From: Candidatus Methanoperedenaceae archaeon GB37
GTDB taxonomy: Archaea; Halobacteriota; Methanosarcinia; Methanosarcinales; EX4572-44
Direction: 5' to 3'
Length of the DNA: 64,000 nt
Assembly: GCA_905171695.1 (NCBI GenBank)
Contig: LR991653.1
Location: 1,338,150-1,402,149 of the forward strand
Under the pieces are notes generated by a model. That model was not told the origin of the DNA, made no database searches, and saw only the letters and a list, made by a program, of their open reading frames with translations. Each line of letters begins with the position of its first letter. Position 1 is the stretch's first letter. Below are positions 6,767 through 55,950 of the stretch, piece after piece. Both the position numbers and the translations under genes were made by a program.

Positions 6767-7784
6767 GCATTTTATGCTGTGTTGAACAATTAGCTGGATG
6801 GGGTATATCTTCAGGTAATTGTTTCTCTGAGAATGTAAGTTTAAACACTTATGAGCATGTTGTAGAAGATGAATTTCATCTTTACTTCTTGAAATAAAGC
6901 TTCTGTAGATCTTGCTCTGCATGTCTCTCCAAATACTCTTTTAACACCAGAGAAGAAACTCTCTGTTGTCCATCTGCAGCCATACCTGTATTTATCTTTC
7001 CATCTTTCATGACCTAACTCTTTTGGGTTCTCTTACTCTCTTAGCTCTGGATGGAGAGCCTCTTGACTTAGTTGAAGAGTTACTTCTTATCTTGATCACT
7101 GGTTCTACATTATTTTCAGCAAGATAATTGAAATTCTCTCTGCTATCATAACCTCCATCACCATATACCCTACTTATCTCTCCACCTCTTCCTTTAATTT
7201 GCTTTACCAGAGGTTTTAACATCTTTCCATCACCTGTTCTTTCATCTGTTATCTTTAAGGCTAAGAGTTTCCTTGTTTTAACGTCTATAGCAATATGAAC
7301 CTTAATCCAACCCTTTCTCGTTTTCCATTTATGTCTGATCCACTCTCCTCTATTCGTTATCTTCATACCAGACGAATCTATTGCAACTACAAGATCTTCT
7401 CCAAGATTACTAGAGAGTTCAAAGTCTAGTTTCCTCAACCTCTTACAAACAGTGGAATAATCAGCTACCTTTAACTCAGGTATATATTCTGATAATTTCC
7501 TCAAAAATCCTTCCATTTGTCTTAATGGAAGGAAAGCTACATGCAAGAAAGCTAGAAAACACATAAAGGTTCGAGGAAACCTGAAAGGTCTGCCAACCTT
7601 CCCCTCATTCATCCTATTTAATTCTTCATCCCAGTTCTCAAGGAAATCCAATGAGATATAGAGTTCTCCCCTCCGCACAAGTTTTTCATTATATTCCTTC
7701 CAATTTCTCTTACTCTGCATCCCAATCATCCCTCCTGTAAATGAGAAATACAGGAAGGAAACTTAAGAGTTATTCAACACAGCA
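6767..7784 (-). mobile_element. IS5/IS4-type IS copy (copy A), most complete, about 1 kb
   Basis: Terminal inverted repeats with core TGCTGTGTTGAA (6775-6786) and TTCAACACAGCA (7773-7784). It contains the transposase ORF at 7007-7729. Confidence 0.8.
6841..7729 (-). pseudogene. DDE transposase (IS4/IS5 superfamily) with a 1-nt frameshift near its C-terminus
   Basis: The 240-aa ORF reads MIGMQSKRNWKEYNEKLVRRGELYISLDFLENW...LPLRQMEGFLRKL...VVAIDSSGMKITNRGEWIRHKW...YGDGGYDS and ends ...KRVRS*. The conserved tail GHERWKDKYRYGCRWTTESFFSGVKRVFGE...YNMLISV continues in the +1 frame to 6841. Confidence 0.75.
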
Positions 7785-11105: not shown

Positions 11106-11794
11106 ATAGGATTATAAATATGGGAGACTATCTTTTATTTATGCTGAGGGTAAGGGAAATTGTTGAAGAGTTGAAGGTGTTTGAGAGGAATAAGGTTCCT
11201 TTTGAGGTTAAGGTTCTCGGTGTTGCAACCTATATTCAGACGTCTTCTGTGAGAAGGACTGCTAGAATTCTCTCTGAGCTTCATCCAGTCTCTAAAACCT
11301 CTGTTTGGAACTGGATACGGAAGTTTGAAGAGAAATTGCCTGTTGTATCAGAGAAGAAGAGAAGATACTCTATAGCATTGGACGAAACAGTTGTTAAATC
11401 AAATAAAAAGGCGTACTATGTCTATTCTGCGGTAGATGTTGAGAAGAACGAGTTAATTCTGATGAGAGTTTATACAAACAGAAATTATCTTGTTTCAAGG
11501 TCTTTTCTCAAAGAAGTGCTAAAGTTCTGCGAGAACAAGCCAAGATTCATCGTTGATAAAGCTCCCTGGCTTATAGATGCACTGAAAAGCCTGGATCTGG
11601 AATTTGAGCATCAAACCTTTCGGAGAGAGAAACCTGGTTGAATCGGTGTTTTCTTCGCTAAAACATAGAATAAAGATATTCTTTTTCTCAATTAGCTCTT
11701 TTAACCCTGTTAAAAACTGGAATTTCTTCTGTAAGCTCTTTATGCTTTATTATAATCGGTTGAGGTGGTGTTTATATTAAGTGGACACGTCCCC
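11092..11794 (+). mobile_element. IS6-family-like insertion sequence (about 0.7 kb)
   Basis: 14-bp terminal inverted repeats GGGGACCCGTCCAC (11092-11105) and GTGGACACGTCCCC (11781-11794), 12/14 complementary. It carries a single transposase gene. Confidence 0.75.
11120..11780 (+). pseudogene. IS6-type DDE transposase with a frameshift
   Basis: The 173-aa ORF reads ...SIALDETVVKSNKKAYYVYSAVDVEKNELILMRVYTNRN...IVDKAPWLIDALKSLDLEFEHQTF and then stops (RREKPG*). The conserved continuation GERNLVESVFSSLKHRIKIFF...YYNRLRWCLY* is in the +1 frame, ending at 11778-11780. Confidence 0.7.
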
Positions 11795-12188: not shown

Positions 12189-12303
12189 TCATGGGTTCAT
12201 TAATGAGTCTTTTAGAGACATTAATAATCTTATTTTTAACTATAGTTTCTGTTTCGTATTCATCATCTGAAGAATACTTATTTTCCGTTTCAGTGGAATT
12301 CAT
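12100..12303 (-). CDS. Small acidic hypothetical protein (67 aa)
   Basis: Its ATG overlaps the stop of the upstream gene (ATGA at 12300-12303), which suggests translational coupling. The sequence is rich in D/E/T. Confidence 0.4.
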   Translation of the reverse strand: MNSTETENKYSSDDEYETETIVKNKIINVSKRLINEPMNEYDVELDVSKYPKTKARKRVVAYVSLKS

Positions 12304-13037
12304 AATGAATCCTCCTCAATTATTTCTTTGATCTTAGAACCGATACTCTCCTTAAATTTTATCTTTACTAGGTTGTGCATATTATTCAATAAAGTAAACG
12401 TTTCGTTGAAATCACGAGGCTCTTTTGTGTAGCAATCATAATCCAACACAAATTCCCTTTTTGATATTGGATTCGGGAACTCGCTGTTGTACATCCCATA
12501 TTGAAATTTCATTAGAAAGTCATCGTAATTATAAACTATTGTGCCCATACATCTTGCTAAAGTTTTTTTCTCGCTTACAAATTCTAACGATTTAAATAGA
12601 TTTGAATTGATCCAGTTCTCCCAATCAAACGGATTTCCCTCATTTAGCGTTATTTGGTTAATATATTTTAGGCCCAAACGCGCACTGTTTCCTTCTAAAT
12701 TCAATTCATCTATAACAGTCTTTATTAATTTTCTAAAACGTTCAAATGATAAATATTTGGAAACCTCTATCCAAATGGCATTCTCATCAATATGAATCCA
12801 TTCGGTTTCTTGCTCATTCTTAAAATCAAAAGTCTCACTTCGTCTCCTTATGGTTTTTTGCTCGTTTGCCCCCATCATAACTTCAACAGTCTCTAACTGA
12901 CCTTCATTATATTTAGGCAACTCATCCTTTATTTTTTCTTTCGCTTTTCTTAGATAGTCTATAGGGATTTTTTTACGCTCTTCAAAATCGATTTTAAAAA
13001 CAACTTTTGTTAAAAAATTGTCTCTCCCCTCAACCAT
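12300..13037 (-). CDS. Hypothetical protein (245 aa), first gene of a three-gene minus-strand unit
   Basis: Long uninterrupted AT-rich ORF. GGAGG lies 8 nt upstream of the ATG (13043-13047, minus strand). I could not confidently assign a family. Confidence 0.55.
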   Translation of the reverse strand: MVEGRDNFLTKVVFKIDFEERKKIPIDYLRKAKEKIKDELPKYNEGQLETVEVMMGANEQKTIRRRSETFDFKNEQETEWIHIDENAIWIEVSKYLSFERFRKLIKTVIDELNLEGNSARLGLKYINQITLNEGNPFDWENWINSNLFKSLEFVSEKKTLARCMGTIVYNYDDFLMKFQYGMYNSEFPNPISKREFVLDYDCYTKEPRDFNETFTLLNNMHNLVKIKFKESIGSKIKEIIEEDSL

Positions 13038-17437: not shown

Positions 17438-18523
17438 ATGGAAATTAAAATTAAGGCACTTACGCCCATCTGGACTGGTGGAGTGGAAGGCAAACCAGAC
17501 AGATTGCATACGACAAGCATCATTGGCAGCATGCGTTGGTGGTACGAGGTCGTTGTTAGGGGCCTTGGAGGGTATGCGTGTGATCCGTCGAGCGAAAAGA
17601 GATGTGAATTGTCGGGTAAGGAAAAGACACGTGAGGAAAGGCTTGCTAAGTTGTGCCCGGCATGTTATCTGTTTGGATGTGGGGGATGGAAAAGAAGATT
17701 TCGGTTAGAGGTTCAGAGTAATACCTCTGTTCCTTTTCAATTGGCCACTTTGGAAAGTAAGAACAAATTCAATCACTGGTGGCTTTCGCAGATTTTTGAA
17801 GATTCGCGAGGAACGAATTTACCATTTGGAGAGATATCATTGTCTTTAAATGGGGATGATGACGTGATTGATCAGGTTAAAGCTCTACTCTCTATCATGG
17901 TAAATATTGGTGGAATCGGTGCAAAAACTCAATATGGGTATGGTCAATTCGATTGGGACGATAAAATAGAATTAAAAAATGCGATTAACACAATTCGCCA
18001 GTTCTTATCAGGAAATATTTTTAAAAGCGGTTCAAACAAAGATAAATGGTATTCACTGACTAATTTTTGGTATTACAAATTGTCCATAACGTCTGACAAT
18101 GGGTTGGTGAACAAATTTAAAAATGCAAACTTGATTGGCAATGGAAATATGCCCTCGGATTATTTGCCTGTTTCGTTCGACATTCGCTATAAAATGCCAA
18201 GTTCTGGGGATGGTACTGGATTAAGGAGTGCATATTATTCATTTTGTAGGCATTCCATGTCAAAAGAAGACGCAAAACAAAAAACAAGATCATTATTTGG
18301 AACACTTGAAAATGATAAAATCGGAAGCAGGATTTTTGTAAGTCATCTTTTCAGGAGGAGAAACATTGATAATAATCATCATCTGAAAGTTTGGGGATTT
18401 ACTGACGATTCGGTTGGAAAAGTTGTTGGTGATGAATTAAAGAACATTTTTGGATTGGATAAACCCCCTTCTATAGTAACTGGAAAAGAGCTTATCAACT
18501 ACTCAAGGGGTGAAGTCCAATGA
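17438..18523 (+). CDS. cmr1: Type III RAMP protein, Cmr1-like (Cas7 group)
   Basis: 361 aa with IKALTPIWTGGVEGKPDRLHTTSIIGSMRWWYEVVVRGLGG, a Cys cluster ending CPACYLFGCGGW, and the Gly-rich GGIGAKTQYGYGQF. Confidence 0.75.
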   Translation: MEIKIKALTPIWTGGVEGKPDRLHTTSIIGSMRWWYEVVVRGLGGYACDPSSEKRCELSGKEKTREERLAKLCPACYLFGCGGWKRRFRLEVQSNTSVPFQLATLESKNKFNHWWLSQIFEDSRGTNLPFGEISLSLNGDDDVIDQVKALLSIMVNIGGIGAKTQYGYGQFDWDDKIELKNAINTIRQFLSGNIFKSGSNKDKWYSLTNFWYYKLSITSDNGLVNKFKNANLIGNGNMPSDYLPVSFDIRYKMPSSGDGTGLRSAYYSFCRHSMSKEDAKQKTRSLFGTLENDKIGSRIFVSHLFRRRNIDNNHHLKVWGFTDDSVGKVVGDELKNIFGLDKPPSIVTGKELINYSRGEVQ

Positions 18524-19767
18524 ATTATGATTATTGCTCGCATCTCACGAAGGAACAAAACCAAACCATTGAAAAAATATTGCGTCTAGAAAATGAAATA
18601 AAACAGGATAAACAGATAAAACAACAAAAAGAAACCGAAGTCGGAAGGCTACGAAAAGAATTATTATCACAAAACCCGCATTTGTTCTATCACGTTATAG
18701 CAGTGTTGAATAATTCATTAAAAGATAATTTACGCTCCACATGGCAAACGGGAAATATCAATATAAAATTGAACAATTACCATATCGATGAAATTATATC
18801 TCCATCAATCAACATATCCGTACTTCCAAAATACTCTTTTCTAATCCAATTCAAATTTACACTCGAAAAACCTTATATCTCACGTGATGAACAGGATTTT
18901 TACATCATAGACAATCCTATCCGCAAAGACAGGGTCTTTGGTCTTCCCTATATTACTCCCTCCTCATGGAAGGGAAGCCTACGGGCCGCACTGTGGCAAA
19001 ATGGACATAAAGAAGACGATGTCCAGATCAATCGAATATTTGGAAATAAACGAGGGATAGAAGAGCATACTGAACTCAAAGCCGGGCGATTGCATCTGTT
19101 TCCCACATTCTTTGATAGAATCGGTCTTGAGATAATAAATCCTCATAACAGGGAGAGACGGATTGTTGAGTATCCGATTCGTATCGAGGCCGTTCCGGGT
19201 GGTACATCGGGTATATTCACCCTTTTATATGTTCCATTCGATTTGATTGGGAAGAATGAAAAGGAGTTTAATAATCAGATCTCAAAAGATGTATGGATAA
19301 TTGCGCAGGGATTGAAAGCAATGTTCAGAGATTATGGCTTCGGTGCAAAGACTTCCAGTGGATTCGGTATTGCAAAACCAGAATTTACCGAAGGAAAACT
19401 CGTTCTGAAGGTCGAGGGCATAGACATCAACCAAAAAGAGGAGGCGACCATCCAAGAACCGGAGGACGGGTTTAAAAAATATCTTAATAGCGATGGGATT
19501 GTGAAAGAGGAGTTTAAAGGGAGTGGCGACGCTGGCCTTCTCAGCAACAATGAGTATAGCGAAACGGGTGAAAAATACGGCGGCGGCAGTCTTACCGAGT
19601 TCAAAAAGTTCAGGCGATGGTATGGCCGTTATGGTGAGAAATGGCAACAACAGTTAAAGAATTCTCATGCCGAATGGCCTATCTGGTGGTTTGAAAGCTT
19701 TGACGAGCTGGTGAATGTTGCGACGGAAATAAAAGAATCACTACTTTCCAAGGAGGCTGCGCGATGA
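18520..19767 (+). CDS. cmr6: Type III RAMP protein, Cmr6-like (Cas7 group) with N- and C-terminal extensions
   Basis: 415 aa with FGLPYITPSSWKGSLRAALW...INRIFG and the G-rich loop YGFGAKTSSGFG. It overlaps its neighbours by 4 nt at both ends (operon coupling). Confidence 0.7.
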   Translation: MNYDYCSHLTKEQNQTIEKILRLENEIKQDKQIKQQKETEVGRLRKELLSQNPHLFYHVIAVLNNSLKDNLRSTWQTGNINIKLNNYHIDEIISPSINISVLPKYSFLIQFKFTLEKPYISRDEQDFYIIDNPIRKDRVFGLPYITPSSWKGSLRAALWQNGHKEDDVQINRIFGNKRGIEEHTELKAGRLHLFPTFFDRIGLEIINPHNRERRIVEYPIRIEAVPGGTSGIFTLLYVPFDLIGKNEKEFNNQISKDVWIIAQGLKAMFRDYGFGAKTSSGFGIAKPEFTEGKLVLKVEGIDINQKEEATIQEPEDGFKKYLNSDGIVKEEFKGSGDAGLLSNNEYSETGEKYGGGSLTEFKKFRRWYGRYGEKWQQQLKNSHAEWPIWWFESFDELVNVATEIKESLLSKEAAR

Positions 19768-22451
19768 CTCCTGACCTTTCAGTTCTGAAGGAAAATAAGG
19801 AAGTCCTCCTCGCAGAGATGGCCGCCTGGCTGCATGATATGGGGAAGTGTAGCGATGAGATGATAGAAAAACAGGCTTTGGATTGTCCATCATCACCCAC
19901 ATTTCAATCCAATAGTGCATATAAAACCGCTTTTTCTTATCTACTGAATGGTAATAATCATAATATTAATTTGTTAGGCGAAACAGTAACCTTTAAAGAC
20001 CTCGTTGAAAAGGGGATGCCTAGGGCAATAAAGGATAGTAGTATTCAATTATCGCTAATTAAATACTTGGGTCGGTGTCATGCTGCTGCGCACATCGAAA
20101 AAGAAGGACAAGCAGATAAAAAGCAGACGGTGAATGATACAAGATTGAGTTCTCCCTTTGGAAATGAAACGGAAGTATTAGTACGTCTTACAGATAAGTT
20201 GAAAGCTTTGCCCTTTGATAAAATAGTCAACAGGGAGGAATTCCTGCCTATTTTGAAAGAAACATTCAAAAACGCACCTGGAGACACGGAAAGACCAATA
20301 AACGAGGTTGATCTGTGGAGCTGGTCCAGCATAGTCGCTGCTCTTTACAAATCTGCACTGGCAGGGGCACTTCTTGGTAACAAACCCAAACCAAATGATT
20401 TGAAGTGGCGGTTGTTGGCCATAAGAATTGATTCCGATAGGATTCTTGGCGATGTGGCGAAGATTCCAGTATTGCTTGCCAGAAAGAAATGGATTACCGA
20501 AGGGTTAGATAATGTTAAAGAACTGATTGAAGAAGAATATCCTCTTGGAAACGAGGTTTACAGGGATGAGAGCGGAAGTATTTTCGTTGTGCCGGACATC
20601 CCGAGTCTATTGAAACTTAAAGAAAATGCGGATAGTTCTGAAAAGACCTTGGAAGATTTAATCTCCAAAAAGTTAGGATTTGAAGGAGAGATTGTTGTAA
20701 CGCCTTCGTTATCTGAACACTGGTGGGGTCAGAATCCTAGTGGAAGACCTGATCCTACGAAAGATAAGATCCCACCGATTGGAGAGATCTTTCAGGAAAA
20801 ACCATATTCACCACCGGACCCAGAAAAGGTTAAGGAATGGTGGCGGGATGTGGACAATACAGAGATTTGCACGATTTCCTGGCTGAGACCTCAGGGAAAA
20901 AAAGAAGGAGCTTTGAGAAAATCTTCAGATTACTGGGCAAAAAAGGTTCGGGGACGATCTGAAGAATGGTATAAGGACAGGAGCAAAACTATATGGATAG
21001 ATGAGGTGGCAGATAAAAACGGCAGAATATGTCTCATCACCGGCAAACTGGACATATCAGGATGGTTAAAACCTAACGGTCATGTGAGGACCCTGCTTGT
21101 TAAGGCTCCAGATGGTAATTCCAGTCAAGTCATTCAGAAAACCCCTTCATTCGCTCGCCTCAGACGTGTCTGGGAAACAACAAAGACGTTCTGGGAGGAA
21201 GTCGAAGAAGATTTTGAGAAAACTGTCGGCAGGGTAGAAAAAAGATTGGTTATTACTGGCTCTGTAGATGATCTATCCAAAAATAAGCTTTTTAAAAACA
21301 ATGTGTATGAGATAGATATCGAAAAAACAAGGGTAAGTGTTTTCTATTCTGGAAATGGTCGGTTTATTGTCGTTGAAAATCTTGAACGATTGGCCCGTAA
21401 GATGGGTTATTCAAAGAACGATGATGACTATTTAGTGTACATTCAACAAGAATTAAACGATAAAGAAGTCAGAATATATAATCCAGACGGTAATAATAGA
21501 AATAAGCACATTGTACTAATAAAAATGTTGAGGGTCGAGCCGATAGAGGATAATTTCATTCCTGTGATCCCTATCTTCTCTGAGCCCAGTCTATTCATGG
21601 CAATCGTACCTGCCAACAAGGCTATGGACATCGTAAAAAACATCAATAAAAAATATGAAATAGAAATGGATAAAGTACGAAACCGTCTCCCTCTTAATAT
21701 CGGATTGACCTTTGCCAGATCTCATACGCCGATAATGGCTTTAATGGAGTCGGGGTGGAAGATGATAAACGCATCTCTAAAGGAGGAAATCAGGATACTC
21801 AATGCAGACTCTGAAAAATGCGATGATAAATATATCTTAAATTTCGAGAACGGGATAACCTGGCGTGTTCAGGGGAAAATGGGGGATGGAATAACAGAAG
21901 ATGTTTGGTATCCGTATTTTTATGTGGATGGAAATCCGAACGATAGAAATATGGTTTTTAAAGGTCCGAAGGGGTGGCTAGTGCATGTATCAGAATTAAA
22001 AAAAGGGGATGCCGTCAAAATCACACCTTCCTCTTTTGATTTCGAGTTTCTGGATTCTGCATCCCGGAGGTTTGAGATATCTTATGATGAAACTGGAAAA
22101 CGGCGTGATAATACAAAATCTAACCGTCCATATTTGATTGATAAATTTGATGACTTCGAGCGTATCTGGAAAGAGATGACAAATAATTTAGCAGCCACTC
22201 AAATAAAGAACGTCATAGGCCTTATTGAAACCAAACGGGAGGAATGGAATGTTTCCAGAGATGATGAAACATTCAAACAATTCGTCAATGATGTTCTCCG
22301 CAATGCCAACTGGAAGCATGGCACCCCTCAAAACCTCGATGAGATCACAAACATAGCAGTAAGTGGAGAGTTAAAAGATATTATCGAACTTTACATGAAT
22401 ATACTGAAGGCAAAAGGAGATTATATGAACGATACAGAGGTGAATACATGA
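19764..22451 (+). CDS. cas10: Cas10 large subunit with N-terminal HD domain and no GGDD cyclase motif
   Basis: 895 aa with HD motif AAWLHDMGK at residues 20-28. The conserved post-palm segment is RLPLNIGLTFARSHTPI. Where GGDD is expected about 40 aa upstream, the sequence reads SEPSLFMAIVPA. No GGDD occurs anywhere in the protein. Confidence 0.8.
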   Translation: MTPDLSVLKENKEVLLAEMAAWLHDMGKCSDEMIEKQALDCPSSPTFQSNSAYKTAFSYLLNGNNHNINLLGETVTFKDLVEKGMPRAIKDSSIQLSLIKYLGRCHAAAHIEKEGQADKKQTVNDTRLSSPFGNETEVLVRLTDKLKALPFDKIVNREEFLPILKETFKNAPGDTERPINEVDLWSWSSIVAALYKSALAGALLGNKPKPNDLKWRLLAIRIDSDRILGDVAKIPVLLARKKWITEGLDNVKELIEEEYPLGNEVYRDESGSIFVVPDIPSLLKLKENADSSEKTLEDLISKKLGFEGEIVVTPSLSEHWWGQNPSGRPDPTKDKIPPIGEIFQEKPYSPPDPEKVKEWWRDVDNTEICTISWLRPQGKKEGALRKSSDYWAKKVRGRSEEWYKDRSKTIWIDEVADKNGRICLITGKLDISGWLKPNGHVRTLLVKAPDGNSSQVIQKTPSFARLRRVWETTKTFWEEVEEDFEKTVGRVEKRLVITGSVDDLSKNKLFKNNVYEIDIEKTRVSVFYSGNGRFIVVENLERLARKMGYSKNDDDYLVYIQQELNDKEVRIYNPDGNNRNKHIVLIKMLRVEPIEDNFIPVIPIFSEPSLFMAIVPANKAMDIVKNINKKYEIEMDKVRNRLPLNIGLTFARSHTPIMALMESGWKMINASLKEEIRILNADSEKCDDKYILNFENGITWRVQGKMGDGITEDVWYPYFYVDGNPNDRNMVFKGPKGWLVHVSELKKGDAVKITPSSFDFEFLDSASRRFEISYDETGKRRDNTKSNRPYLIDKFDDFERIWKEMTNNLAATQIKNVIGLIETKREEWNVSRDDETFKQFVNDVLRNANWKHGTPQNLDEITNIAVSGELKDIIELYMNILKAKGDYMNDTEVNT

Positions 22452-23407
22452 ACAGTGAAAAGAAAAAGCTGTACACCCACCAGCGGTTTGTAATGTTCGC
22501 TCTTGACCCGATTCATATTGGGGCTGGTGGATACCGTCTTGGTCGGGTTGACAACAGTATTGTAAGAGAAATGGGGACGAATTTACCGAAGATTCCGGGT
22601 ACAAGCCTTGCAGGTGCCGCGCGAAGTTATGCTTCGATGAGATATGGGAAGCCTGAAGCCGCAGGCCAGCATAAACGGTTTATAGGTGAAAAAGAGAAGT
22701 GCCCGATAATCTACACCTTTGGAACCGCAACGGAAACCGGTGGTGAGGCAGGCAAGGTCAGCTTTGGAGATGCAAGGATTTTATTCTTCCCGGTGCCTTC
22801 AGTGGCGGGTCCTGTATGGGTCACCACAAAGGAGATTCTTGAGGAAGTTGGGTTCACCGTTAATGGTGGCGATGTCGGTGAGGAAACTGTGCTGTCCAAT
22901 CTTTCCTGGAGTAAAGAGCAAATAAACCTCGGCTGGTTATCGTTGAATCATAACTGGGGCTTAACCATTTCTCCACCCGAAGAAATCAAAGACAAAAAGG
23001 GATGGAAAGCAATAGAAAACAGGATTGTCCTCATTTCTCAGAAATTGTTTTCAGAGGTTGTCAACAGCAATTTGGAGGTGCGAACATCGGTTGCCATAAA
23101 CCCCGAGACCGGAGCTGCTGAAGACGGTGCCCTGTTCACATATGAAGCATTACCTCGAGCTACCTGGTTATGGCATGATATCATCGAGGATGATTACAAA
23201 CAAAGTTTCCCGAAAACGGAAAATCAATTCAAAGATAACAAGGAAAACAGTGGGGATGCTCTCGGGGAGATATGGGAGCGACCGTTGGATGTTGTGAAAG
23301 CCGGTTTAAGATTAATCGAATACCTTGGAATCGGTGGCATGGGGACACGCGGTTTTGGGAGGATGAAAAACATCTGTGATTGGGAGGTTGGCAGTAATGA
23401 ATCTTGA
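22448..23407 (+). CDS. cmr4: Cmr4-like Cas7 backbone subunit
   Basis: 319 aa with ALDPIHIGAGGYRLGRVDNSIVRE...LPKIPGTSLAGAARSYA and the C-terminal GIGGMGTRGFGRM glycine-rich loop. Confidence 0.8.
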   Translation: MNSEKKKLYTHQRFVMFALDPIHIGAGGYRLGRVDNSIVREMGTNLPKIPGTSLAGAARSYASMRYGKPEAAGQHKRFIGEKEKCPIIYTFGTATETGGEAGKVSFGDARILFFPVPSVAGPVWVTTKEILEEVGFTVNGGDVGEETVLSNLSWSKEQINLGWLSLNHNWGLTISPPEEIKDKKGWKAIENRIVLISQKLFSEVVNSNLEVRTSVAINPETGAAEDGALFTYEALPRATWLWHDIIEDDYKQSFPKTENQFKDNKENSGDALGEIWERPLDVVKAGLRLIEYLGIGGMGTRGFGRMKNICDWEVGSNES

Positions 23408-23762
23408 CCTTGAAGCTACGAGAACCTCCCAGGAAATAATAACGAAGACGGGAGGAAATAGATCCAGTGAGGTTGAAAACCTGATTACTAAGACGCTAGG
23501 GGTTCTTCAGGAGAACGGCATTTATGCATGCACACTCTATCTGAACTCCAGAACGAGTGAAGCGGAGAAGAAGATTGGCCCTGTCATCCACGAGGAACTT
23601 CTTAAAATGACGAAACGACTTGTTAAGACACCAATAAAAAACGATGATTACGAATATCTTACGGACGAAATCTGTTCAGACATTGACCTACTTATACTAA
23701 CAAAACAGCTCTGGGAGCAGACATTGACCTATGCTAGATACGGGGCGAAAGCAAGGACGTGA
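23397..23762 (+). CDS. cmr5: Cmr5-like small subunit (Cas11)
   Basis: About 121 aa and predicted helical (..VENLITKTLGVLQENGIYACTLYLNSR..). It lies between cmr4 and cmr3. The ATG at 23397 overlaps the cmr4 stop region; the track ORF starts at 23376. Confidence 0.6.
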   Translation: MNLDLEATRTSQEIITKTGGNRSSEVENLITKTLGVLQENGIYACTLYLNSRTSEAEKKIGPVIHEELLKMTKRLVKTPIKNDDYEYLTDEICSDIDLLILTKQLWEQTLTYARYGAKART

Positions 23763-23766
23763 TATT

Positions 23767-24660
23767 ATGACATGGACCCCCTATCTTGTAAGTTTCAAAT
23801 TGCGCTCACCAGTTCATATCGGATGGAAAAAAATTGGAAACTTGCAAGTAACACGCCCTTACATTACCGGAAAAACATTATGGGGTGCGCTGACAGCAAG
23901 ACTTGTTAGAGATGAAGGGAATAGCAATTATAGTGAGATTGGAAAACAAGTAGATGATGAATTACGCTTCACTTACTTTTATCCATCAACTAGTCCAGAT
24001 AAGGTCAATCTATGGCCATGGGATAAAAAGAACGAGTTTGCCTGGAAATTTCTGGGTAGTTATATCAGTACTGCAATAGAAGGCGATACCGCCGAGGAAG
24101 GGAGCCTCCATGAGGTTGAGTATATATCCCCAACAACTCGTGATGGAAACCCGGTCTTTCTTGTTGGGTATGTGATTGAAAAGAAGGATTGCCACTTGAA
24201 ATGGAAGGAAGCTTTAAAGCGGATTCAAATTGGCGGTGAGAGAGGATATGGATGGGGACGAACTGAGTTATTGAGCGATCCCAAACCAGTAGAAGAGTGC
24301 TTTGGTTATAGAATCGATAATTCCGAGATTTCTCCAATGATTTCTATTCCCAAAGATAATGTGATTCTTGCACATGCAAAAACCGATTTCCTAAAATGCA
24401 TAGGATATATTGAACCATTTCTGGGGAGAGAAACAAATGATTCGGATGGCGTTGGTGGAAAAATACCGCACCCTATAGGTGGAAAAATACCGCACCCTAT
24501 AGGTGGAAAAATACCGCACCCTATAGGTGGAAAAATACCGCACCCTATAACATGTTACACACCAGGGAGTAAAGTTGTGGCCGATACAACATTCGTTATT
24601 CAACCGAAAGGAGTATGGGAAAAAACGAGGTGCAATAGTTCGGGAGGTTCCAATCCATGA
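23767..24660 (+). CDS. cmr3: Cas5-group RAMP (Cmr3/Csx10-like) with an internal tandem octapeptide repeat
   Basis: MTWTPYLVSFKLRSPVHIGWKKIGNLQVTRPYITGKTLWGALTARLVR..., IGGERGYGWGR glycine-rich loop, then (GGKIPHPI)x4. It is the last gene of the operon. Confidence 0.65.
   Translation: MTWTPYLVSFKLRSPVHIGWKKIGNLQVTRPYITGKTLWGALTARLVRDEGNSNYSEIGKQVDDELRFTYFYPSTSPDKVNLWPWDKKNEFAWKFLGSYISTAIEGDTAEEGSLHEVEYISPTTRDGNPVFLVGYVIEKKDCHLKWKEALKRIQIGGERGYGWGRTELLSDPKPVEECFGYRIDNSEISPMISIPKDNVILAHAKTDFLKCIGYIEPFLGRETNDSDGVGGKIPHPIGGKIPHPIGGKIPHPIGGKIPHPITCYTPGSKVVADTTFVIQPKGVWEKTRCNSSGGSNP
24454..24549 (+). repeat. Perfect 4 x 24-bp in-frame tandem repeat (GGTGGAAAAATACCGCACCCTATA)
   Basis: Read directly: units at 24454-24477, 24478-24501, 24502-24525 and 24526-24549, with no mismatch. 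Each unit encodes GGKIPHPI. Confidence 0.97.
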
Positions 24661-24943: not shown

Positions 24944-25049
24944 GCGAGGGTAACCAAGTCGGCCAAAGGTGCAGGACTTAAGTGGTACTGGTGGTATCGG
25001 AGTTATCCTGTCTCGAAGGAGTTCATGGGTTCAAATCCCATCCCTCGCA
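24944..25049 (+). tRNA. tRNA-Leu (anticodon UAA) with a 22-nt intron after position 37
   Basis: Acceptor GCGAGGG/CCCTCGC; anticodon stem CAGGA (24972-24976)/TCCTG (25006-25010); loop CTTAAG + intron TGGTACTGGTGGTATCGGAGTT (24983-25004) + A; long variable arm; T arm ATGGG-TTCAAAT-CCCAT. No CCA is encoded. Confidence 0.8.
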
Positions 25050-25094
25050 TCAAAAACAGAAAATTTTCTGAATTGTGATGGATGTGGTCTCTTG

Positions 25095-25634
25095 ATGGTT
25101 GACGATGATACTCTCTTTGGCGAGGTTGTTCGGGTGGATGGTGTGAATGTGTATCTTGTGAGGTCGGTCTCTCGGTCTTCTCGTGAGCTTGGTGTTGGCG
25201 AGTTCGTGGGAGTTGAGTGTGGAGGGGATGTTGTGGTCTCTGTTCTCACTGGCGTGGAACGGTCGATACCTGAGGATGTGGTATCGATGATCTCTCTTGA
25301 GATGGAGTCGAAGTATCTCCCTTACAGTTCTGAGCTGGATAGTAGCTATTATCGTCTCTTTGGGCTTGGGCTTCTCTCCCGGAGTGGTGTTCAGCATGGT
25401 CTTCGTGTGGCTCCGCGGCTTCGCAGCAGGGTGTGGCGATTGGATGATGATACGATCAGGAAGTTTCACCTACCTCATGGTCGTGCTAACATCTCTTACT
25501 TCAATCGGTATCGTGAAGCACTCGGGGATGATCTCCTGCTTGCGATCGTTGATGAGCTCTGGGCTCTTCTGCCAGAGGCTCGGAGGATGCTTGCGCCGGT
25601 CAGGAAGTACCTTAAGGGTGGTGGTGCACTCTGA
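25095..25634 (+). CDS. Hypothetical protein resembling a stand-alone HerA-type N-terminal barrel domain
   Basis: From the internal Met (the track ORF start at 24969 lies inside the tRNA). FGEVVRVDGVNVYLV...GEFVGVECGGDVVVSVLTGVER parallels the N-terminal region of the downstream ATPase. Confidence 0.4.
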   Translation: MVDDDTLFGEVVRVDGVNVYLVRSVSRSSRELGVGEFVGVECGGDVVVSVLTGVERSIPEDVVSMISLEMESKYLPYSSELDSSYYRLFGLGLLSRSGVQHGLRVAPRLRSRVWRLDDDTIRKFHLPHGRANISYFNRYREALGDDLLLAIVDELWALLPEARRMLAPVRKYLKGGGAL

Positions 25635-25642
25635 GCGGGTGT

Positions 25643-27223
25643 GTGATCGGGCTTGTCTTGACGCACACGCGTGAGGGCTTCTCTTTTGTAACGAAGTACT
25701 CACTTGCATCTGGCGAGTTTGTCTCTTATCGGTCTGGGAGTGATCGCGTCCTTGCCCGTGTGAGTCATACTGAGCCCTTGCGGGATTATCCTGTGGAGTT
25801 CCTGCTCGATCCCGAGGTTGACGCTGAGGATGTTGCACTCTTTTATGGGCTTGATGCAGATGATTATCGGTTTTATCGTGTGCATGCACGGGTTGTGGGC
25901 TACTTTGACAGGCGGGTTAACGAGTTCATAAACCCGCGTATGATGCCGCTCTCAGGGACGAGGATAGAGCGAGTGGATGAGACGATCCTCTCGGATGTGA
26001 ACCGGGTCTCTGCAGACGAGGTTGGCTCGGCTCACATCGGCACGATACTTGGCACGAAGACCGATGCTGTTCTCTCTGTTCGTGAGATGGTGAGCCAGCA
26101 TCTCTCAATCATCGCTGCAACGGGCGCAGGCAAGTCCTATACCGTTGGCGTGATCGTGGAAGAGTTGATCTCGGCAAAGAACATGGCGTCGGTATTGATC
26201 TTCGATCCACACGGCGAGTACAGTGTGCTAAGCGAGATTCAGAACGATCAGAGCTTCTGGGAAGAGGGGTATCGACCAAGGGTGCGGATCGTTAAGCCGG
26301 ACCAGATAAAGATCAGACTCGGTGATCTCACGCCTGGCGATTTTATCAGTATCATGGACGATGGTAACATGTCAGAGAAGATGAAGACGCTCTTTGTGGA
26401 GGCTTATGAGAGTTTGAAGAGGGATGAGAGGAGCCTCACACGAAGTTTCACCAGGAACGAGCTTCGTGAGACTATTGAGGGCTTAAGTGATGGCAAGAAT
26501 GAGCTGAGCATTGCAGGCCTCCTCTGGCGCTATGATAGGATGGTGCGTGAGAAGATCTTCGATGACTTTCGGAGCATCCCACTCCGCGAGTACTTCCAGC
26601 CAGGGCTTCTCACCATAATGGATGTCTCAGGCATAGGGGAGTGGAAACAGCAGTTGATCGCAACGATTCTCCTCCGCCAGCTCTTCGATTCTCGGGAGGG
26701 CACAGATAATGAGCGTTACAGTGAAGAGTTCCGACCTGAGCGTTATCTACCCTATCCTGTCTTCCTGATACTTGAAGAGGCGCACAGGTTTGCACCGCAG
26801 AGTGGAGATGCGAAATCGAGACAGATACTCAAGAAAATCCTATCAGAGGGTCGAAAATTTGGAATTGGCGTATGCATGGTCTCACAGCGCCCAAGTAAAC
26901 TCGATTCAGATGCGCTCTCTCAGTGTATGACACAGATCACGATGCGAATCATCAATCCAGCAGATCAAAAGCAGATAGGAGAGAGCATCGAGTCGGTGAG
27001 CAGAGACCTGCTCGAAGAGCTACCAGCCCTCACACGGGGGCAGGCGATCGTAAGCGGTGTTGCCATAAACACACCGATCATCGTTGATATCAGAAAGCGG
27101 CGCACAAGAGAGATAGGTGGGACGAGCAAGGACGCACCGCAACTCTGGAGAGAAGAGATGCAAGAGAGGCGATATGAGACGGTGGAGAGACGGCCAAGCT
27201 ACGAACTCGATGTGGGAGTATAA
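25643..27223 (+). CDS. HerA/DUF87-type P-loop ATPase
   Basis: 526 aa with Walker A IIAATGAGKSYTV, Walker B/sensor VFLILEEAHRFAP, and GRKFGIGVCMVSQRPSKLD, typical of HerA/FtsK-like DUF87 ATPases. Confidence 0.75.
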   Translation: MIGLVLTHTREGFSFVTKYSLASGEFVSYRSGSDRVLARVSHTEPLRDYPVEFLLDPEVDAEDVALFYGLDADDYRFYRVHARVVGYFDRRVNEFINPRMMPLSGTRIERVDETILSDVNRVSADEVGSAHIGTILGTKTDAVLSVREMVSQHLSIIAATGAGKSYTVGVIVEELISAKNMASVLIFDPHGEYSVLSEIQNDQSFWEEGYRPRVRIVKPDQIKIRLGDLTPGDFISIMDDGNMSEKMKTLFVEAYESLKRDERSLTRSFTRNELRETIEGLSDGKNELSIAGLLWRYDRMVREKIFDDFRSIPLREYFQPGLLTIMDVSGIGEWKQQLIATILLRQLFDSREGTDNERYSEEFRPERYLPYPVFLILEEAHRFAPQSGDAKSRQILKKILSEGRKFGIGVCMVSQRPSKLDSDALSQCMTQITMRIINPADQKQIGESIESVSRDLLEELPALTRGQAIVSGVAINTPIIVDIRKRRTREIGGTSKDAPQLWREEMQERRYETVERRPSYELDVGV

Positions 27224-27326
27224 AAGAACAACCAGACCACATGCTACCCAATGCAGAAAACCCGTGTTAAGCGAAATTGCCTCAGCAAAAGTAGGTTCTA
27301 TGAAGTCTTAGAGAAGGGTACAAAAT

Positions 27327-27815
27327 ATGCCAGAATGGAAAAATCACGATAAGTGGGCTGAAAAAATGGGGATATCAAAAGAGACTTCAAAGTTTGTCAA
27401 TGGTCTAATTGATTTTCCAAAAAATTGTCAAGAGTTCCAAGATTTTTGTGAGAGAGACCCTAGTGCAAGAATTTTTACCAAAGGTAGACCAACACGCATG
27501 ACTGTAGCATCCCTAATAACCCACGATAGTGGTAGAAGTAACAAATTTTATAGAGAAATACAGCTAAAATTCTTATCACAAAAAGGGAGCGATCATGTAA
27601 AAGCATATTATCTACACCAAGTTTTAGATTATATAGAATGGTGGATTAAAAATTATTCTGAAGAAAATCTAACCGTTGAAAACATTTTACAGGAAAAAAG
27701 GTTGGAAAAGAAAATTGGCGATCCTATAAACGAAGAATTACAGTCAGTGGTGAAATTTGCAATCCAAAATTCAGAGGAAATATTGCAAGATTATAGCAGG
27801 GATGACATAAAATGA
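27327..27815 (+). CDS. Hypothetical protein (AT-rich single-gene cassette)
   Basis: 162-aa ORF, compositionally unlike its flanks and bounded by GTTAAGCG (27266) and the structured repeat at 27885. No family recognised. Confidence 0.5.
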   Translation: MPEWKNHDKWAEKMGISKETSKFVNGLIDFPKNCQEFQDFCERDPSARIFTKGRPTRMTVASLITHDSGRSNKFYREIQLKFLSQKGSDHVKAYYLHQVLDYIEWWIKNYSEENLTVENILQEKRLEKKIGDPINEELQSVVKFAIQNSEEILQDYSRDDIK

Positions 27816-41854: not shown

Positions 41855-44800
41855 ATGAAGATGCAGCATCTCTCTCTCGGGCTTCTCCTCCTCGGAATCA
41901 TCACAACCAGCGCGGTCCCATCAACCCAAGTCACCAATACCAGCAACCAGCCCACACCATTTCTGATCTACGGAGAGGTATTCTATGAGAACAACACCCA
42001 GGTTGACGCTCCAAGGGTTGTTGTGACGAACCTCAATACGAGCAGGGAACTTGTTGCTGAAAACCACAGCGGAGAAAACTTCTACCAGGTCATAACCACT
42101 ACCTCAGAGATACACCCCGGCGATCTACTGCTCATCAGCGCGGAGAAGGATGGAAGACCGGTTGGAAGTGTGAATCGCACGATAACAATGAATGAGAGTC
42201 GTGCTGGAGTTCTCATCGTGGATATCAACCGCGGACTCCCTGATCTTCGGGTGATAGGAATATTCCCACCCCAGTGTATATTCGACAGCAGGAATAACAC
42301 GGTCAATGCCACGATAGCAAACAACGGAACCACCCCGGCAGGAGGATTCAATGTGAGCCTTGCTGTGAATGGCGATCTCTTTGAGAGAGCACGTATCGAG
42401 TCACTTAATACGGGGTGCACCGAGAATCTCACCTTCAACTGGACGCCAGTAGAGAGAGGGAACCATACTCTGACCGTGACTGCGGATTCTGACGGTGAGA
42501 TCGATGAGTCGGATGAGATGAATAATGCTACGAGCGTGTCGGTACTCGTTGGCGCACCCGATCTCACTGTGACAGATATAAGCGTCAAAGGCTACGTGCT
42601 TGACCCAGAGTACCCGGATGAGACCGTGCCAGTCTTCGAGTACCCGAATAATGTAACGGCCACGATTCTGAACAGAGGGCGTCTGAGTGCTGATGCCATG
42701 GTTGAGTTCTGCAGTGAGCTTAACATCTCAAGCACACCTATAATCAGGTTTTTTACGGGTTATGGAAACTCATCAAACGATACCATCACACAGCCAAACG
42801 CCAGCAGGACAAGGGTTCATTTTATCAGTGTGAACCCGGGAGCATACTCGTATGTTAACATATGCGATGAAGAGAACAATACCGTGGAGACCATTGGTAA
42901 TCACAGGTCTGATTACTGGAGCAACTGGGTGGATGGCGATACCCTGCGGGTGCACGCCCGCATCGCCAGTACATCAGATTACATCTCTTTTGTTATAGAT
43001 AAATACGAATATGTGTTTGCAGATGCAAGCGTATCGATAGCTGCTAACAAATCCGTGAATATTACCAGAGTATGGCACGCCGACCCCCCGAGATTCACGA
43101 ATGAAACAGGGACCAGATACGTGATGATACCCTGTTACACACTCTCAGTGATTGCAGACCCTGCTGACACGCTCTGCGAACTCGATAAATCAAACAACAC
43201 CTACAGAAGAGAAGCGAGACTATACTACCCCTACGACTTCACGATCACGAACATAACATTTTCACCAGAGCATCCAAGAGAGGGCGATCCTGTGACCATT
43301 GATGCAGCCATGAGAAATAATGGTTTCAGAAGCATAGATGCGAGGGTTGCCTTCTACATCGATGATAGCATTCTTGCGGGAGAGAGTGTATATTTCAGGG
43401 CGAATAAGACAGAACATGTCACGGCAATATGGAATGCGCTACCTGATATAAACCACCTGAGATGGGAGCACAACATAACAGTCGTGGTCGATCCAGAGAA
43501 CGAGATAGAGGAGCAGGATGAGGAGAATAACAACCTCTCCAGAGTGATGAATATAACACTCCCAAACCTCACGATCACAGAGATAACAACCGATCCCGAA
43601 GAGCCAATCATCGGCGATACCATCGCTGTGACGGCTACCATCAGAAATGATGAGAATAGGACTGCAAATACCACGGCGTGGTTCTGCGAAGAGAACAGCA
43701 GCATACGGCTCACTGGCAGTGTCAACAGACCAAAATCACGGGTAATTGAATTTGATGAAGTCATCACGCACGAGGATGCGATCATGATGAGGGCGTACTG
43801 TACCATACATGGTGGGGTTGACGCTAGTGGTGGTACTCTCAAGGTCTATCTCAACGATCGCCAGGTGCTGACGTGTACAGGTGGAAATTTCAACTGGTCT
43901 GGATGGACATCGTGGACTTCTGGAAGCACCAAAATGATAAATATAACAGTAAAAGGAGATAACGTGCCGGACAACGACTTCCATGTTGACTACAGCATAG
44001 ATAAGTACCAGGCAGTATTTGGAAACACAAGTATAGTCATACCTGCCAACGAGTCCGTGAACCAGTCGATGAACTGGAGAGTGACTCAGAAAAATCCAAG
44101 ATTGATCGTTACTACGAGCAATGCCACAAACTCAACAGATGTGTCTGTGAGCGGGACCGATATTGCAGTTCAAGACCTATCGATCAGTGATGATCTCCTG
44201 TGGGATGGGGATGTTGTGAATATCACTGCTGTGATCGCCAATTTCGGTCGAATGAATGCAAGCAATATCACGGTCGCATTCTATGATGTGCCCCTCGATG
44301 CTGGCAATCAGACGGTGCTCATCGCCAAAAGAGATATCGCATCCCTCGATGCTGGTGAGTCGAGAGATATCACAGTGCCATGGATTGCATCCCTGAAGGT
44401 TGGAAGGGATATCTCATACAACCACACCATACAGGTCAAAACAATGCCAGAGGATAGTTACATTGAGGATAATCCAGAAAATAATACAATATATTCGAAT
44501 ACGATTATGGTAAAGCGTTCCCGTGATTTTTCGCTCACCGACATCTCTTTTTCCATGAACAATGAGACGCTTGATCCAGTGAATCTGAGCATAGGTGAGC
44601 TTTTGACCATAAACGCCACGATAGATGCCACGAATCTTGCCAGTTGCGGCGGAAGTGTTGAGGTAAGCTGCTATCTGGATAACACTCTGATCAACATAAC
44701 AACGGTCTCATTCCCTGCTGGCAATGAAACCGTAGATGCAGAATTTGAGTGGAATGTACGTGCTCATGGAAATCACACCATCACCGTGATCGCAGATCCT

Positions 44801-55182: not shown

Positions 55183-55185
55183 AAT

Positions 55186-55950
55186 ATGAATCCAGAGCAA
55201 AGGATAGACAAATTGTTAGTATTTGATGTGTGGGGAGACTATGCTCATTTTAGACGATTCTATACTACTACGTCTCCGCTCACTTTTACTGTCCCTCCAC
55301 GAACTGCATTATGTGGCTTAATTGGTGCAATGATTGGATTGGAAAAAGAGAACAATGAGTATCTAAAATATTTCACTACGGACAAGGCATACATCGGTTT
55401 AAAGCTGCTAACTCCAGTAAAAAAAGTAATTATTGCTGAAAATTTGATACACACAAAGAATGCAAAGGGCATTGGGATGAACTTGATAACTGAAAGAACT
55501 CAGATAAATTTTGAGTTCTTGAAAGACCCAAGATATAGAGTTTATTTTTACCACGCGGATAAAGAGATATATCAACAGCTGAGAGAAAACTTAGAAGCTC
55601 ATAAATCTGTATACACGCCGTGTCTTGGTTTAAGTGAGAACATAGCGAACTTTGTGTTTGTTGGTGAAGTTGAAGCTAAAACTAACTCAAGTATCGATGA
55701 ATATGTTCAAATTGATTCCGTATTGCCGTCTGAAAAAATTGTTTGCGAGAAGGGTATCAATTTTAATTTAGATGGAGAATTTTTTTCAATGAAAGTTCCA
55801 ATAGAGTTGAATTTAGAAAGGGTTGTTACAAAGTATAGTGATCTTTTGTTTGAGAGAAATGGCAAACGGATTGAAGTTAAATTAGCAGAACCTTATTGGA
55901 CTATAGATTATGGAACTGGAACACAGGAAAATATCGTCTTCATCGAATGA
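55186..55950 (+). CDS. cas5: Cas5 (type I-B)
   Basis: LVFDVWGDYAHFRRFYTTTSPLTFTVPPRTALCGLIGAMIGL is the canonical Cas5 N-terminal block. Confidence 0.9.
   Translation: MNPEQRIDKLLVFDVWGDYAHFRRFYTTTSPLTFTVPPRTALCGLIGAMIGLEKENNEYLKYFTTDKAYIGLKLLTPVKKVIIAENLIHTKNAKGIGMNLITERTQINFEFLKDPRYRVYFYHADKEIYQQLRENLEAHKSVYTPCLGLSENIANFVFVGEVEAKTNSSIDEYVQIDSVLPSEKIVCEKGINFNLDGEFFSMKVPIELNLERVVTKYSDLLFERNGKRIEVKLAEPYWTIDYGTGTQENIVFIE

Follow-up and report, generated by a model that had tools for sequence, protein, structure and literature searches.

What kind of effector is encoded by a type III CRISPR-Cas operon whose Cas10 subunit carries no cyclase motif, and from where does it obtain its guides? The question is raised by six co-oriented genes at positions 17438-24660 (+ strand) of a 64,000-nucleotide stretch of DNA from Candidatus Methanoperedenaceae archaeon GB37, hereafter the window. 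A first-pass annotation had assigned these genes to subtype III-C. The ORF map and profile-HMM typing identified them as cmr1, cmr6, cas10c/csx11, cmr4, cmr5 and cmr3, and led to the same subtype: the large subunit falls into the Csx11/Cas10c family and the small subunit into III-C-specific Cmr5 profiles. The profile scores of Csx11, Cmr4 and Cmr1 all exceed their own curated cutoffs, and since the profile E-values range from 1e-30 to 1e-223, chance matches are ruled out. The order cmr1-cmr6-cas10-cmr4-cmr5-cmr3 recurs in about 60 of 80 related Csx11 loci, found with tblastn in both bacteria and archaea. The operon is an ordinary example of the already-known subtype III-C in a Methanosarcinales archaeon, and we consider it probable that it is an intact, stand-alone interference operon acting by the mechanism proposed below.

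All five subunits other than the large one have recognizable Cmr identities. The Cas7-family RAMP encoded by cmr1 (17438-18523, + strand, as are all six genes; 361 aa) matches Cmr1 in TIGR01894 (E=9e-31, above cutoff) and the PADLOC profile for III-B/III-C Cmr1 (E=8e-30). The product of cmr6 (18520-19767, 415 aa) is a Cas7-family RAMP extended at both its N- and its C-terminus; PADLOC Cmr6 matches across residues 100-297 (E=9e-75), and homologues from other III-C loci align over nearly all 415 aa, which marks such extensions as usual for this family. The Cas7 backbone subunit, encoded by cmr4 (22448-23407, 319 aa), matches TIGR02580 Cmr4 over its full length and above cutoff (E=3e-38). In a phmmer alignment its residue D35 pairs with D26 of the P. 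furiosus Cmr4 chain 4wnz_A (GRVDNSIVRE versus GVVDQPIQRE). We take D26 to be the catalytic residue of P. furiosus Cmr4, and the aligned aspartate is present in the GB37 protein as a putative catalytic residue. The Cas11 small subunit is encoded by cmr5 (23397-23762, 121 aa) and matches PADLOC Cmr5 (E=3e-36) as well as the III-C-specific Cmr5 profile PDLC01471, 'CAS-III-C; effector_SS' (E=1e-34). Finally, the Cas5-family subunit encoded by cmr3 (23767-24660, 297 aa) matches PADLOC Cmr3 (E=3e-80). Inside cmr3, TRF detected a perfect in-frame tandem repeat of 4 x 24 nt (24454-24549, +; 4.0 copies, 100% match), encoding GGKIPHPI four times. The relative 'Ca. Methanoperedenaceae archaeon GB50', about 97.7% identical over the operon region, has two copies of this repeat, and other Cmr3 proteins carry one FGGxxSxA unit at the same loop.

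The starts of the last two genes were chosen by Shine-Dalgarno-like sequences, the beginnings of the PADLOC matches and the gene calls in GB50. The mechanical ORF for cmr5 runs from GTG 23376; both Cmr5 profiles match from residue 8, ATG 23397 is preceded at a distance of 8-14 nt by the sequence GGGAGGT, and the GB50 call is likewise 121 aa long. For cmr3, the mechanical ORF runs from ATG 23731, the PADLOC match starts at residue 13 of this long ORF, and the GB50 gene call agrees with the later start. Judged from these signals, the true starts are most likely ATG 23397 and ATG 23767, respectively. The gene order given by the first-pass annotation held, and all six ORFs are present on the + strand within its coordinates, whereas its 4-nt overlaps throughout did not hold: ATGA overlaps exist at only three of the five junctions, cmr1/cmr6 (where the cmr1 stop overlaps the cmr6 start), cmr6/cas10 and cas10/cmr4. 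With the chosen starts, cmr4 and cmr5 overlap by 11 nt, and cmr5 and cmr3 are separated by 4 nt. A Shine-Dalgarno-like sequence precedes each of the six genes, which together with the ATGA overlaps indicates a single coupled operon.

Is this operon still in use? It might be a decaying or silent relic, that is, a III-C module that was acquired horizontally, fell into disuse and is heading to pseudogenisation. GB50, the closest genome, carries two frameshifts, a +1 in cmr1 and a -1 in cas10c just past the HD motif, which could be a sign that the lineage can dispense with the module and is losing it, or could be assembly errors. The GC content of the module is 0.39-0.44, compared with about 0.49-0.52 in housekeeping parts of the window, cas6b is 34 kb distant, and the I-B and III-C systems of Methanosarcina mazei were reported to be very weakly active under standard conditions (PMC7465815). 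In the window, however, the six genes are all intact and of full length relative to their profiles, the overlaps expected of translational coupling and the Shine-Dalgarno-like sites are kept, and so are the catalytic HD residues of Cas10c and the Cmr4 aspartate; the GB50 indels, moreover, are single-base and may have arisen in assembly. We regard a relic as unlikely.

The large subunit, cas10c/csx11 (19764-22451, +, 895 aa), matches Csx11 in TIGR02682 with E=4e-179 (a score of 598 bits, where the cutoff is 249) and PADLOC Cas10c of CAS-III-C with E=3e-223, the latter spanning residues 4-882 of 895. Exact-match look-ups gave no record of either this Cas10c or the Cmr4 protein. The top Foldseek matches of its AF2 model (pLDDT 88.4) are all Csm1/Cmr2 Cas10 chains, with probability 1.0 and 8-13% identity. 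A sequence search of the PDB for Csx11 relatives, run with the single sequence and with a 50-member profile, found none. Hallmarks of subtype III-B did not appear: there was no match to a Cmr2 model, generic Cas10 palm-2 models gave only fragments (E=1e-2 to 2e-4), and there is no GGDD.

The protein does retain the HD nuclease motif noted in the first-pass annotation, WLHDMGKC (in the context MAAWLHDMGKC), at residues 22-29 (19827-19850, +). In the family alignment the H-D pair is kept in 112 of 115 Csx11 members, and H24 and D25 are nearly invariant (alignment A1). The conservation profile reveals a second HD-domain motif, RCHAAAHIEKE, at residues 104-114 (20073-20105, +), in which H106 is invariant and H110, E112, K113 and E114 are nearly so. 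These residues bear on the possibility of an effector that is regulatory or acts on RNA only, in which Cmr4 cuts or binds complementary RNA and the HD domain contributes nothing to cutting DNA. A recognizable HD domain is missing from about half of III-C systems, which persist nonetheless (PMC11229360), so HD activity is not essential to the subtype, and the putative catalytic aspartate of Cmr4 is conserved. Against this, the HD motifs are nearly invariant in the clade to which GB37 belongs, H106 and H110 as well as the H-D pair, which suggests that selection has maintained a functional metal site. We find an effector without DNA cleavage quite unlikely, and favour one in which the HD nuclease is active.

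The cyclase site presents the opposite picture. Where GGDD is expected, Cas10c has SEPSL (residues 606-610, 21579-21593, +), a degenerate palm-2 hairpin according to the AF2 model and the alignment. In the model, SEPSL forms the turn between strands 602-606 and 610-616, which are followed by a helix at 617-638, and the Pfam PF22335 palm-2 match begins at residue 611, directly after it. In the predicted structure, SEPSL is thus part of the second palm domain's strand-hairpin-strand-helix element. Searching the whole protein with the expressions GG[DE][DE] and [SG]GD[DE] gave zero matches, in agreement with the earlier observation that GGDD occurs nowhere in it. Across 114 homologues, the replacement is itself conserved: the Csx11 family shows [SA]EPSxFMAIVPA at the palm-2 hairpin, with P608, F611, M612 and P616 invariant and an acidic residue (E or D) at position 607 in nearly all members. 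As far as sequence and model allow us to judge, the cyclase motif is lost in this Cas10c, as in the whole Csx11 family. No canonical GGDD Cas10 gene was found in the flanks of the 80 loci.

The surroundings of the operon fit this picture. Searches with Pfam, NCBIfam and PADLOC found no CARF, Csm6 or Csx1 in any ORF of at least 150 aa in the 64-kb window, as the first-pass annotation had stated; five neighbouring ORFs match no family and could in principle still encode such a protein. Two candidate links to neighbouring genes were rejected. HerA (25643-27223) and its flanking ORFs could have been accessory genes of the III-C system, but their homologues adjoin none of the 80 other III-C loci, and the best-scoring HerA profiles are generic rather than 'type III coevolved'. 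The tRNA-Leu at 24944-25049 has no duplicated fragment elsewhere in the window that would mark it as an integration site.

One may still ask whether Csx11 is more than a cyclase-dead Cas10, with the degenerate hairpin or a Csx11-specific beta-rich block at residues ~675-790 (21786-22133, +, defined by the conservation profile) serving instead in catalysis or signalling of another kind, with another output. The palm-2 hairpin with its following helix (600-650) and the 701-790 stretch are among the most conserved parts of the family, the acidic residue at hairpin position 607 is kept in nearly all members, and the block has invariant residues (D713, W715, Y716, H741, D759, Y774, R788 and P789). 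When residues 670-795 were modelled in isolation, even the best PDB match in the fold search fell short of significance (E=0.25) and no Cas10 chain was among the hits, so that the block appears to have no structural counterpart in solved Cas10s. Yet interfaces between subunits would explain the conservation equally well, and the isolated model is poor over the FDFEFLD motif (pLDDT <50). Furthermore, no conserved candidate sensor or effector gene stands beside III-C among the 80 other loci, HerA and its neighbours included, and a published census lists no known ancillary effectors for III-C (PMC11229360). We consider such another output extremely improbable. The more specific idea, that the [SA]EPSxFM hairpin together with the 675-790 block (D713, H741, D759, R788) forms a new catalytic or signal-generating site, is in our estimate very unlikely; if true, it would give III-C an output besides the HD DNase and the Cmr4 RNase.

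An effector of this kind would need guide RNAs. No CRISPR array was found in the 64-kb window by TRF, a repeat finder, two custom scans or an approximate search for copies of the GB50 repeat, so the absence noted earlier extends to the entire window. The accompanying claim that cas6 and adaptation genes are missing is true of the immediate surroundings only, since the window contains both cas6b (58504-59214, +; PADLOC Cas6 E=7e-82, Cas6b E=3e-76) and the 5' part of cas1 (63587-64000, +), which runs off the window and whose translation matches the full Cas1 of contig L001 and of GB50. In L001 the start of cas6b is called at 58549, and the identical gene there matches Pfam Cas6b_N and Cas6b_C. 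These genes belong to a distal locus at 52-64 kb, in which they are joined by effector modules of two subtypes, I-B and the rare III-F; both modules are complete, and neither had been mentioned before. L001 differs from the window by a single 1-nt indel near 60898, in cas10f.

In GB50, cas1 is followed by cas2 and cas4 and then by an array in which the repeat occurs at least 82 times. The repeat is GTTGCAGAGCAACATCCACTAAAACAAGGATTGAAAC, ending in ATTGAAAC. Its last ~24 nt recur in the arrays that directly adjoin the III-C operons of Methanococcoides (L072) and Methanosarcina (L008), and among the other arrays examined next to III-C operons, most have repeats with the ending ATTGAAAC. The first-pass annotation had proposed that crRNAs are borrowed from a locus at or beyond 58.5 kb. 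Synteny (cas6b and cas1 in the window; cas2, cas4 and the array in GB50) and the match of the repeat 3' end to III-C-adjacent arrays support this, and on these grounds the III-C complex most likely uses guide RNAs from the CRISPR locus ~35-40 kb away. One array probably feeds III-C as well as the neighbouring I-B and III-F modules, with Cas6b probably processing the crRNAs of all three, and the archaeon may run three mechanistically different effectors off a single Cas6b and array. The stand-alone ("orphan") arrangement is common for III-C: neither array nor cas1 lies nearby in 14 of the 23 III-C loci that are complete and have enough flanking sequence.

We propose the following mechanism, modelled on that of the III-B Cmr complexes. 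Pre-crRNA would be transcribed from an array ~1.7 kb past the end of the window, a position given by synteny with GB50, the genome in which the array itself is observed. Cas6b (58.5 kb) would cut it to leave the 8-nt 5' handle AUUGAAAC. Cmr3 and Cas10c would bind the handle, and several copies of Cmr4, together with Cmr5, Cmr6 and Cmr1, would coat the guide. On binding of a complementary invader transcript, Cmr4 would cut the target RNA, and the same binding would switch on the HD domain of Cas10c to cut nearby single-stranded DNA. A cyclic-oligoadenylate (cOA) signal would not be produced, and a CARF effector would therefore not be needed. A literature search turned up no work on the biochemistry or structure of a III-C complex (nor anything relevant on CRISPR in Ethanoperedens); because of this, because the PDB search returned no Csx11 relative, and because the structural matches are only 8-13% identical, all III-C activities considered here are extrapolated from III-A and III-B.

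The main value of the case is a clean annotation, in which both the III-C operon and the loss of its cyclase motif had been correctly read from the raw sequence. It adds one example of a type III system relying on the HD nuclease and not on cOA signalling, and an alkane-oxidising-type archaeal lineage with three interference modules (I-B, III-F and III-C) that probably share Cas6b, the adaptation module and the array. Given that our searches yielded neither biochemical nor structural work on III-C, and no III-C structure in the PDB copy searched, this operon may be a sensible choice for such work, being intact and coming from a lineage of thermophilic enrichments. It does not challenge current understanding.

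The III-B Cmr complexes of P. furiosus, S. islandicus and T. thermophilus share with the GB37 operon the Cmr1, Cmr3, Cmr4, Cmr5 and Cmr6 families and the overall Cas10 fold, and GB37 Cmr4 aligns with the solved P. furiosus protein including D26. In III-B, however, the large subunit is Cmr2 with GGDD, whereas GB37 has Csx11, with no sequence-level match in the PDB, SEPS at that position and the extra beta-rich block at 675-790; the typical cmr gene order is also different, and cOA signalling is not expected in GB37. The III-F module of the same window (59291-63488) resembles the III-C operon in having a Cas10 with an N-terminal HD motif (ELHDIGK) and no GGDD, in lacking ancillary effectors, and probably in using the same Cas6b and array. 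Unlike III-C, it is a minimal four-gene module (cas10f, cas5, cas11f and one cas7) with an unrelated Cas10 subfamily, and it is embedded in the I-B/adaptation locus, while III-C stands alone.

The closest likeness is to III-C systems such as that of M. mazei Go1, which agrees in its six genes and their order, in a Csx11 with HD and without GGDD, and in having no CARF effector, and which likewise co-occurs with a I-B system and Cas6b. The presence of both I-B and III-C in M. mazei has been described (PMC7465815), and a paper cited there names Cas6b cross-cleavage for both systems in its title. The GB50 repeat is nearly identical to those of Methanosarcina and Methanococcoides over the last ~24 nt. 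In these genera (L008, L072) the III-C module lies between cas6b and cas1-cas2-array, whereas in GB37 that slot holds the III-F module and III-C is found 34 kb away; the fourfold octapeptide expansion in Cmr3 is specific to the GB37 lineage. Csx11 has been described as an "inactivated Cas10" (PMC3150331), and III-C loci as having neither cyclase sites nor known ancillary effectors, with about half keeping HD (PMC11229360). The inactive cyclase and the stand-alone layout of the GB37 operon are thus the published norm for III-C (PMC3150331, PMC11229360).

Profile-HMM typing placed the six co-oriented genes of the operon in subtype III-C, as the first-pass annotation had proposed. In the mechanical ORF map of the window they are, all on the forward strand, cmr1 (17438-18523; TIGR01894, E=9e-31), cmr6 (18520-19767; PADLOC, E=9e-75), cas10c/csx11 (19764-22451; TIGR02682, 598 bits against a cutoff of 249, E=4e-179; PADLOC 'Cas10c, CAS-III-C', E=3e-223), cmr4 (22448-23407; TIGR02580, E=3e-38), cmr5 (23376-23762; III-C-specific small-subunit profile, E=1e-34) and cmr3 (23731-24660; PADLOC, E=3e-80). 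The 4-nt overlaps noted earlier hold for the first three junctions, all ATGA, but not for the last two genes, whose mechanical starts are probably too early. Later starts are favoured because they fit both the beginnings of the PADLOC matches and the gene calls of GB50 ('Ca. Methanoperedenaceae archaeon GB50', LR991654.1), the genome closest to the window: ATG 23397 for cmr5, with GGGAGGT upstream and a 121-aa product, and ATG 23767 for cmr3 (297 aa). A Csx11 survey of one genome per species yielded 153 Csx11-encoding stretches, 80 of which were kept for tblastn with the window proteins. The order cmr1-cmr6-cas10c-cmr4-cmr5-cmr3 was recovered in about 60 of these 80 loci, spanning Methanosarcinales, Chloroflexota, cyanobacteria and Bacillota, among others. 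This recurrence bears out the III-C architecture of the first-pass annotation and marks the operon as a typical III-C interference module.

The motif search likewise agreed with the earlier description of the large subunit, Cas10c (895 aa): MAAWLHDMGKC occupies residues 20-30 and SEPSL residues 606-610, and no GGDD-like string was found anywhere in the protein. The H-D pair of WLHDMGKC is kept in 112 of 115 aligned family members, and in a second motif of the same alignment, RCHxAAHIEK, H106 and H110 are invariant or nearly so. Since half of III-C systems lack the HD, according to PMC11229360, the complex might act on RNA only; the HD being near-invariant in this clade, we regard this as quite improbable. 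Across the family the SEPSL position reads [SA]EPSxFMAIVPA, with P608, F611, M612 and P616 invariant. An AlphaFold2 model built from 50 homologues (mean pLDDT 88.4, pTM 0.88) had only Cas10 chains as its best PDB matches (Csm1, Cmr2 and III-D Cas10; probability 1.0, identity 8-13%). In this model strands 602-606 and 610-616 are joined by a turn made of SEPSL, and helix 617-638 comes next; judged by fold element, the motif is thus predicted to occupy the strand-hairpin-strand-helix unit that bears GGDD in palm domains. Sequence searches of the PDB detected no Csx11 relative. A weak Pfam palm-2 match starts at residue 611. Placement in another subtype and an intact cyclase pocket were both looked for as grounds against the first-pass annotation, and neither was found.

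A Csx11-specific beta-rich block (residues ~675-790; window 21786-22133, +) is dense in invariant polar residues, including the FDFEFLDSASRRFE motif; D713, W715, Y716, H741, D759, R788 and P789 are invariant. Together with the palm hairpin and helix (600-650) it is the most conserved part of the protein after the HD, and modelled alone it gave no significant PDB match, features that could betray a cryptic new active site. We hold this to be very improbable: the stand-alone model is poor over the key motif, III-C has no conserved partner gene, and conserved interfaces would account for the pattern just as well.

In Cmr4, D35 (GRVDNSIVRE) aligns opposite D26 (GVVDQPIQRE) of the solved P. furiosus Cmr4, the residue on which we take cleavage of target RNA to depend. 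Cmr6 shares its long N- and C-terminal extensions with its homologues. Within cmr3, a perfect in-frame tandem repeat of 4 x 24 nt (24454-24549, +) encodes GGKIPHPI four times, against two copies in GB50; in other Cmr3 proteins this loop, which directly follows the conserved EPxVGRET motif, carries only one FGGxxSxA unit. The octapeptide is a strain-variable coding repeat. GB50 further differs by a +1 insertion in cmr1 (window 17692) and a -1 deletion in cas10c (19851, directly after the HD motif), which split both genes and reflect either real pseudogenisation or assembly error. An operon in decay could be read from these frameshifts, yet all six window genes are intact and keep their coupling signals, and faulty assembly may account for the indels of GB50, so we consider decay unlikely.

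The operon stands apart from other CRISPR genes, as first described: four methods detected no array in the 64-kb window, and no ORF of at least 150 aa in it carries a CARF, Csm6 or Csx1 domain. The stand-alone state is common for III-C. Of 23 complete modules flanked by 5 kb or more on both sides, 14 lacked both an array (at least four repeats) and any cas1 homologue in the flanks. Upstream lie a DsbD-like protein, a DUF3795 protein, an Rce1-like protease and a 263-aa protein without assigned function; downstream follow tRNA-Leu(UAA), a 180-aa ORF, a HerA ATPase, a 162-aa ORF, a class I (Trp/Tyr-type) tRNA synthetase and a ParA/Mrp NTPase. The tRNA (24944-25049, +; 284 nt past the cmr3 stop) has a long variable arm and, behind its anticodon, an intron of 25 nt; it was found by Rfam (48 bits) and missed by ARAGORN. 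Because it overlaps the mechanical start of a 221-aa ORF, 25092, which gives the 180 aa of the GB50 gene call, is the more likely start. The HerA-family gene (25643-27223) sits in a cluster (25092-27815, +) with the 180-aa and 162-aa ORFs, neither of which had family hits. The cluster is conserved in GB50 and linked to III-C in no other locus; as neither HerA nor any of the three proteins without assigned function (263, 180 and 162 aa) recurs beside III-C in the 80 other loci, they are neighbours and were rejected as accessories. The HerA cluster could be a defence or repair cassette in its own right.

The distal locus, which the first-pass annotation placed at 58.5 kb or farther and took for cas6 plus an array, does contain cas6b (58504-59214, +; profile typing) and cas1 (63587 onward, +, running off the window; matched to GB50 Cas1, 98% identical), but is richer than that. 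It adds a complete I-B effector module (cas8b, cas7, cas5, cas3; 52320-58378, +; profile typing) and, between cas6b and cas1, a four-gene module (59291-63488, +) that types as the rare subtype III-F, made up of Cas10f (E=4e-103), Cas5 (Cas5_IIIf, 1e-52), Cas11f (1e-22) and one Cas7 (Cas7_IIIf, 2e-68). Cas10f has an N-terminal HD, ELHDIGK, and lacks GGDD. In a contig carrying the same cas6b/III-F/cas1 region (L001), a single 1-nt indel relative to the window, near 60898, splits cas10f. GB50 is syntenic and, across the 22.5 kb that surround III-C, 97.65% identical. In its distal locus the order cas8b-cas7-cas5-cas3-cas6b-[III-F]-cas1-cas2-cas4 is followed ~136 nt later by an array with 82 or more copies of the repeat GTTGCAGAGCAACATCCACTAAAACAAGGATTGAAAC. 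The last ~24 nt of this repeat are the same in arrays adjoining III-C in Methanococcoides and Methanosarcina, and the ATTGAAAC handle ends most other III-C-adjacent arrays examined. GB50 synteny and this repeat likeness make it the best-supported model, as had been presumed, that III-C would borrow Cas6b-processed crRNAs from the distal array, known from GB50 and here presumably beyond the window end. One cas6b, adaptation module and array apparently serve three interference modules (I-B, III-F and III-C) in 64 kb.

Both CRISPR regions and the stretch at window positions 10-14 kb have a GC of 0.30-0.44 against ~0.49-0.52 in housekeeping parts, which suggests horizontally acquired islands. Transposase/IS fragments (DDE_Tnp_1, IS240-type DDE, HTH_32/33) occur at 7007-7729 (-), 11120-11641 (+) and 50837-51361 (-), and a TIGR04255-family protein (12300-13037, -; E=4e-25) lies in low-GC sequence near one of them. 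Elsewhere, a protein of 2672 aa (41855-49873, +) contains eight CARDB repeats and DUF3344 and is preceded by a 530-aa BatD/DUF11/CARDB protein; both are probably large surface or S-layer-associated proteins.

No study of the biochemistry or structure of any III-C complex came up in a literature search or among the PDB matches, and every step of the following scheme is extrapolated from III-A and III-B. Cas6b would yield crRNAs with a AUUGAAAC 5' handle, to be capped by Cmr3 and Cas10c while Cmr4, Cmr5, Cmr6 and Cmr1 assemble along the guide. Cmr4 would cleave the complementary transcript, whose binding may allow the HD domain to cleave single-stranded DNA in the transcription bubble; cyclic oligoadenylate would not be made.

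An earlier study (PMC3150331) names Csx11 an 'inactivated Cas10' subfamily; thus the HD-positive, cyclase-negative state is the published character of III-C. The coexistence of I-B and III-C is reported for M. mazei in PMC7465815. The Methanosarcina (L008) and Methanococcoides (L072) loci read cas3-cas6b-[III-C]-cas1-cas2-array, whereas the same slot of the window holds III-F. This occupancy of the cas6b-cas1 slot, the grouping of three effector modules about a single array and the variable Cmr3 octapeptide are the more unusual items, none of them unprecedented. The operon adds one more example of a known subtype, with the properties already known for it, from a lineage already in public databases.
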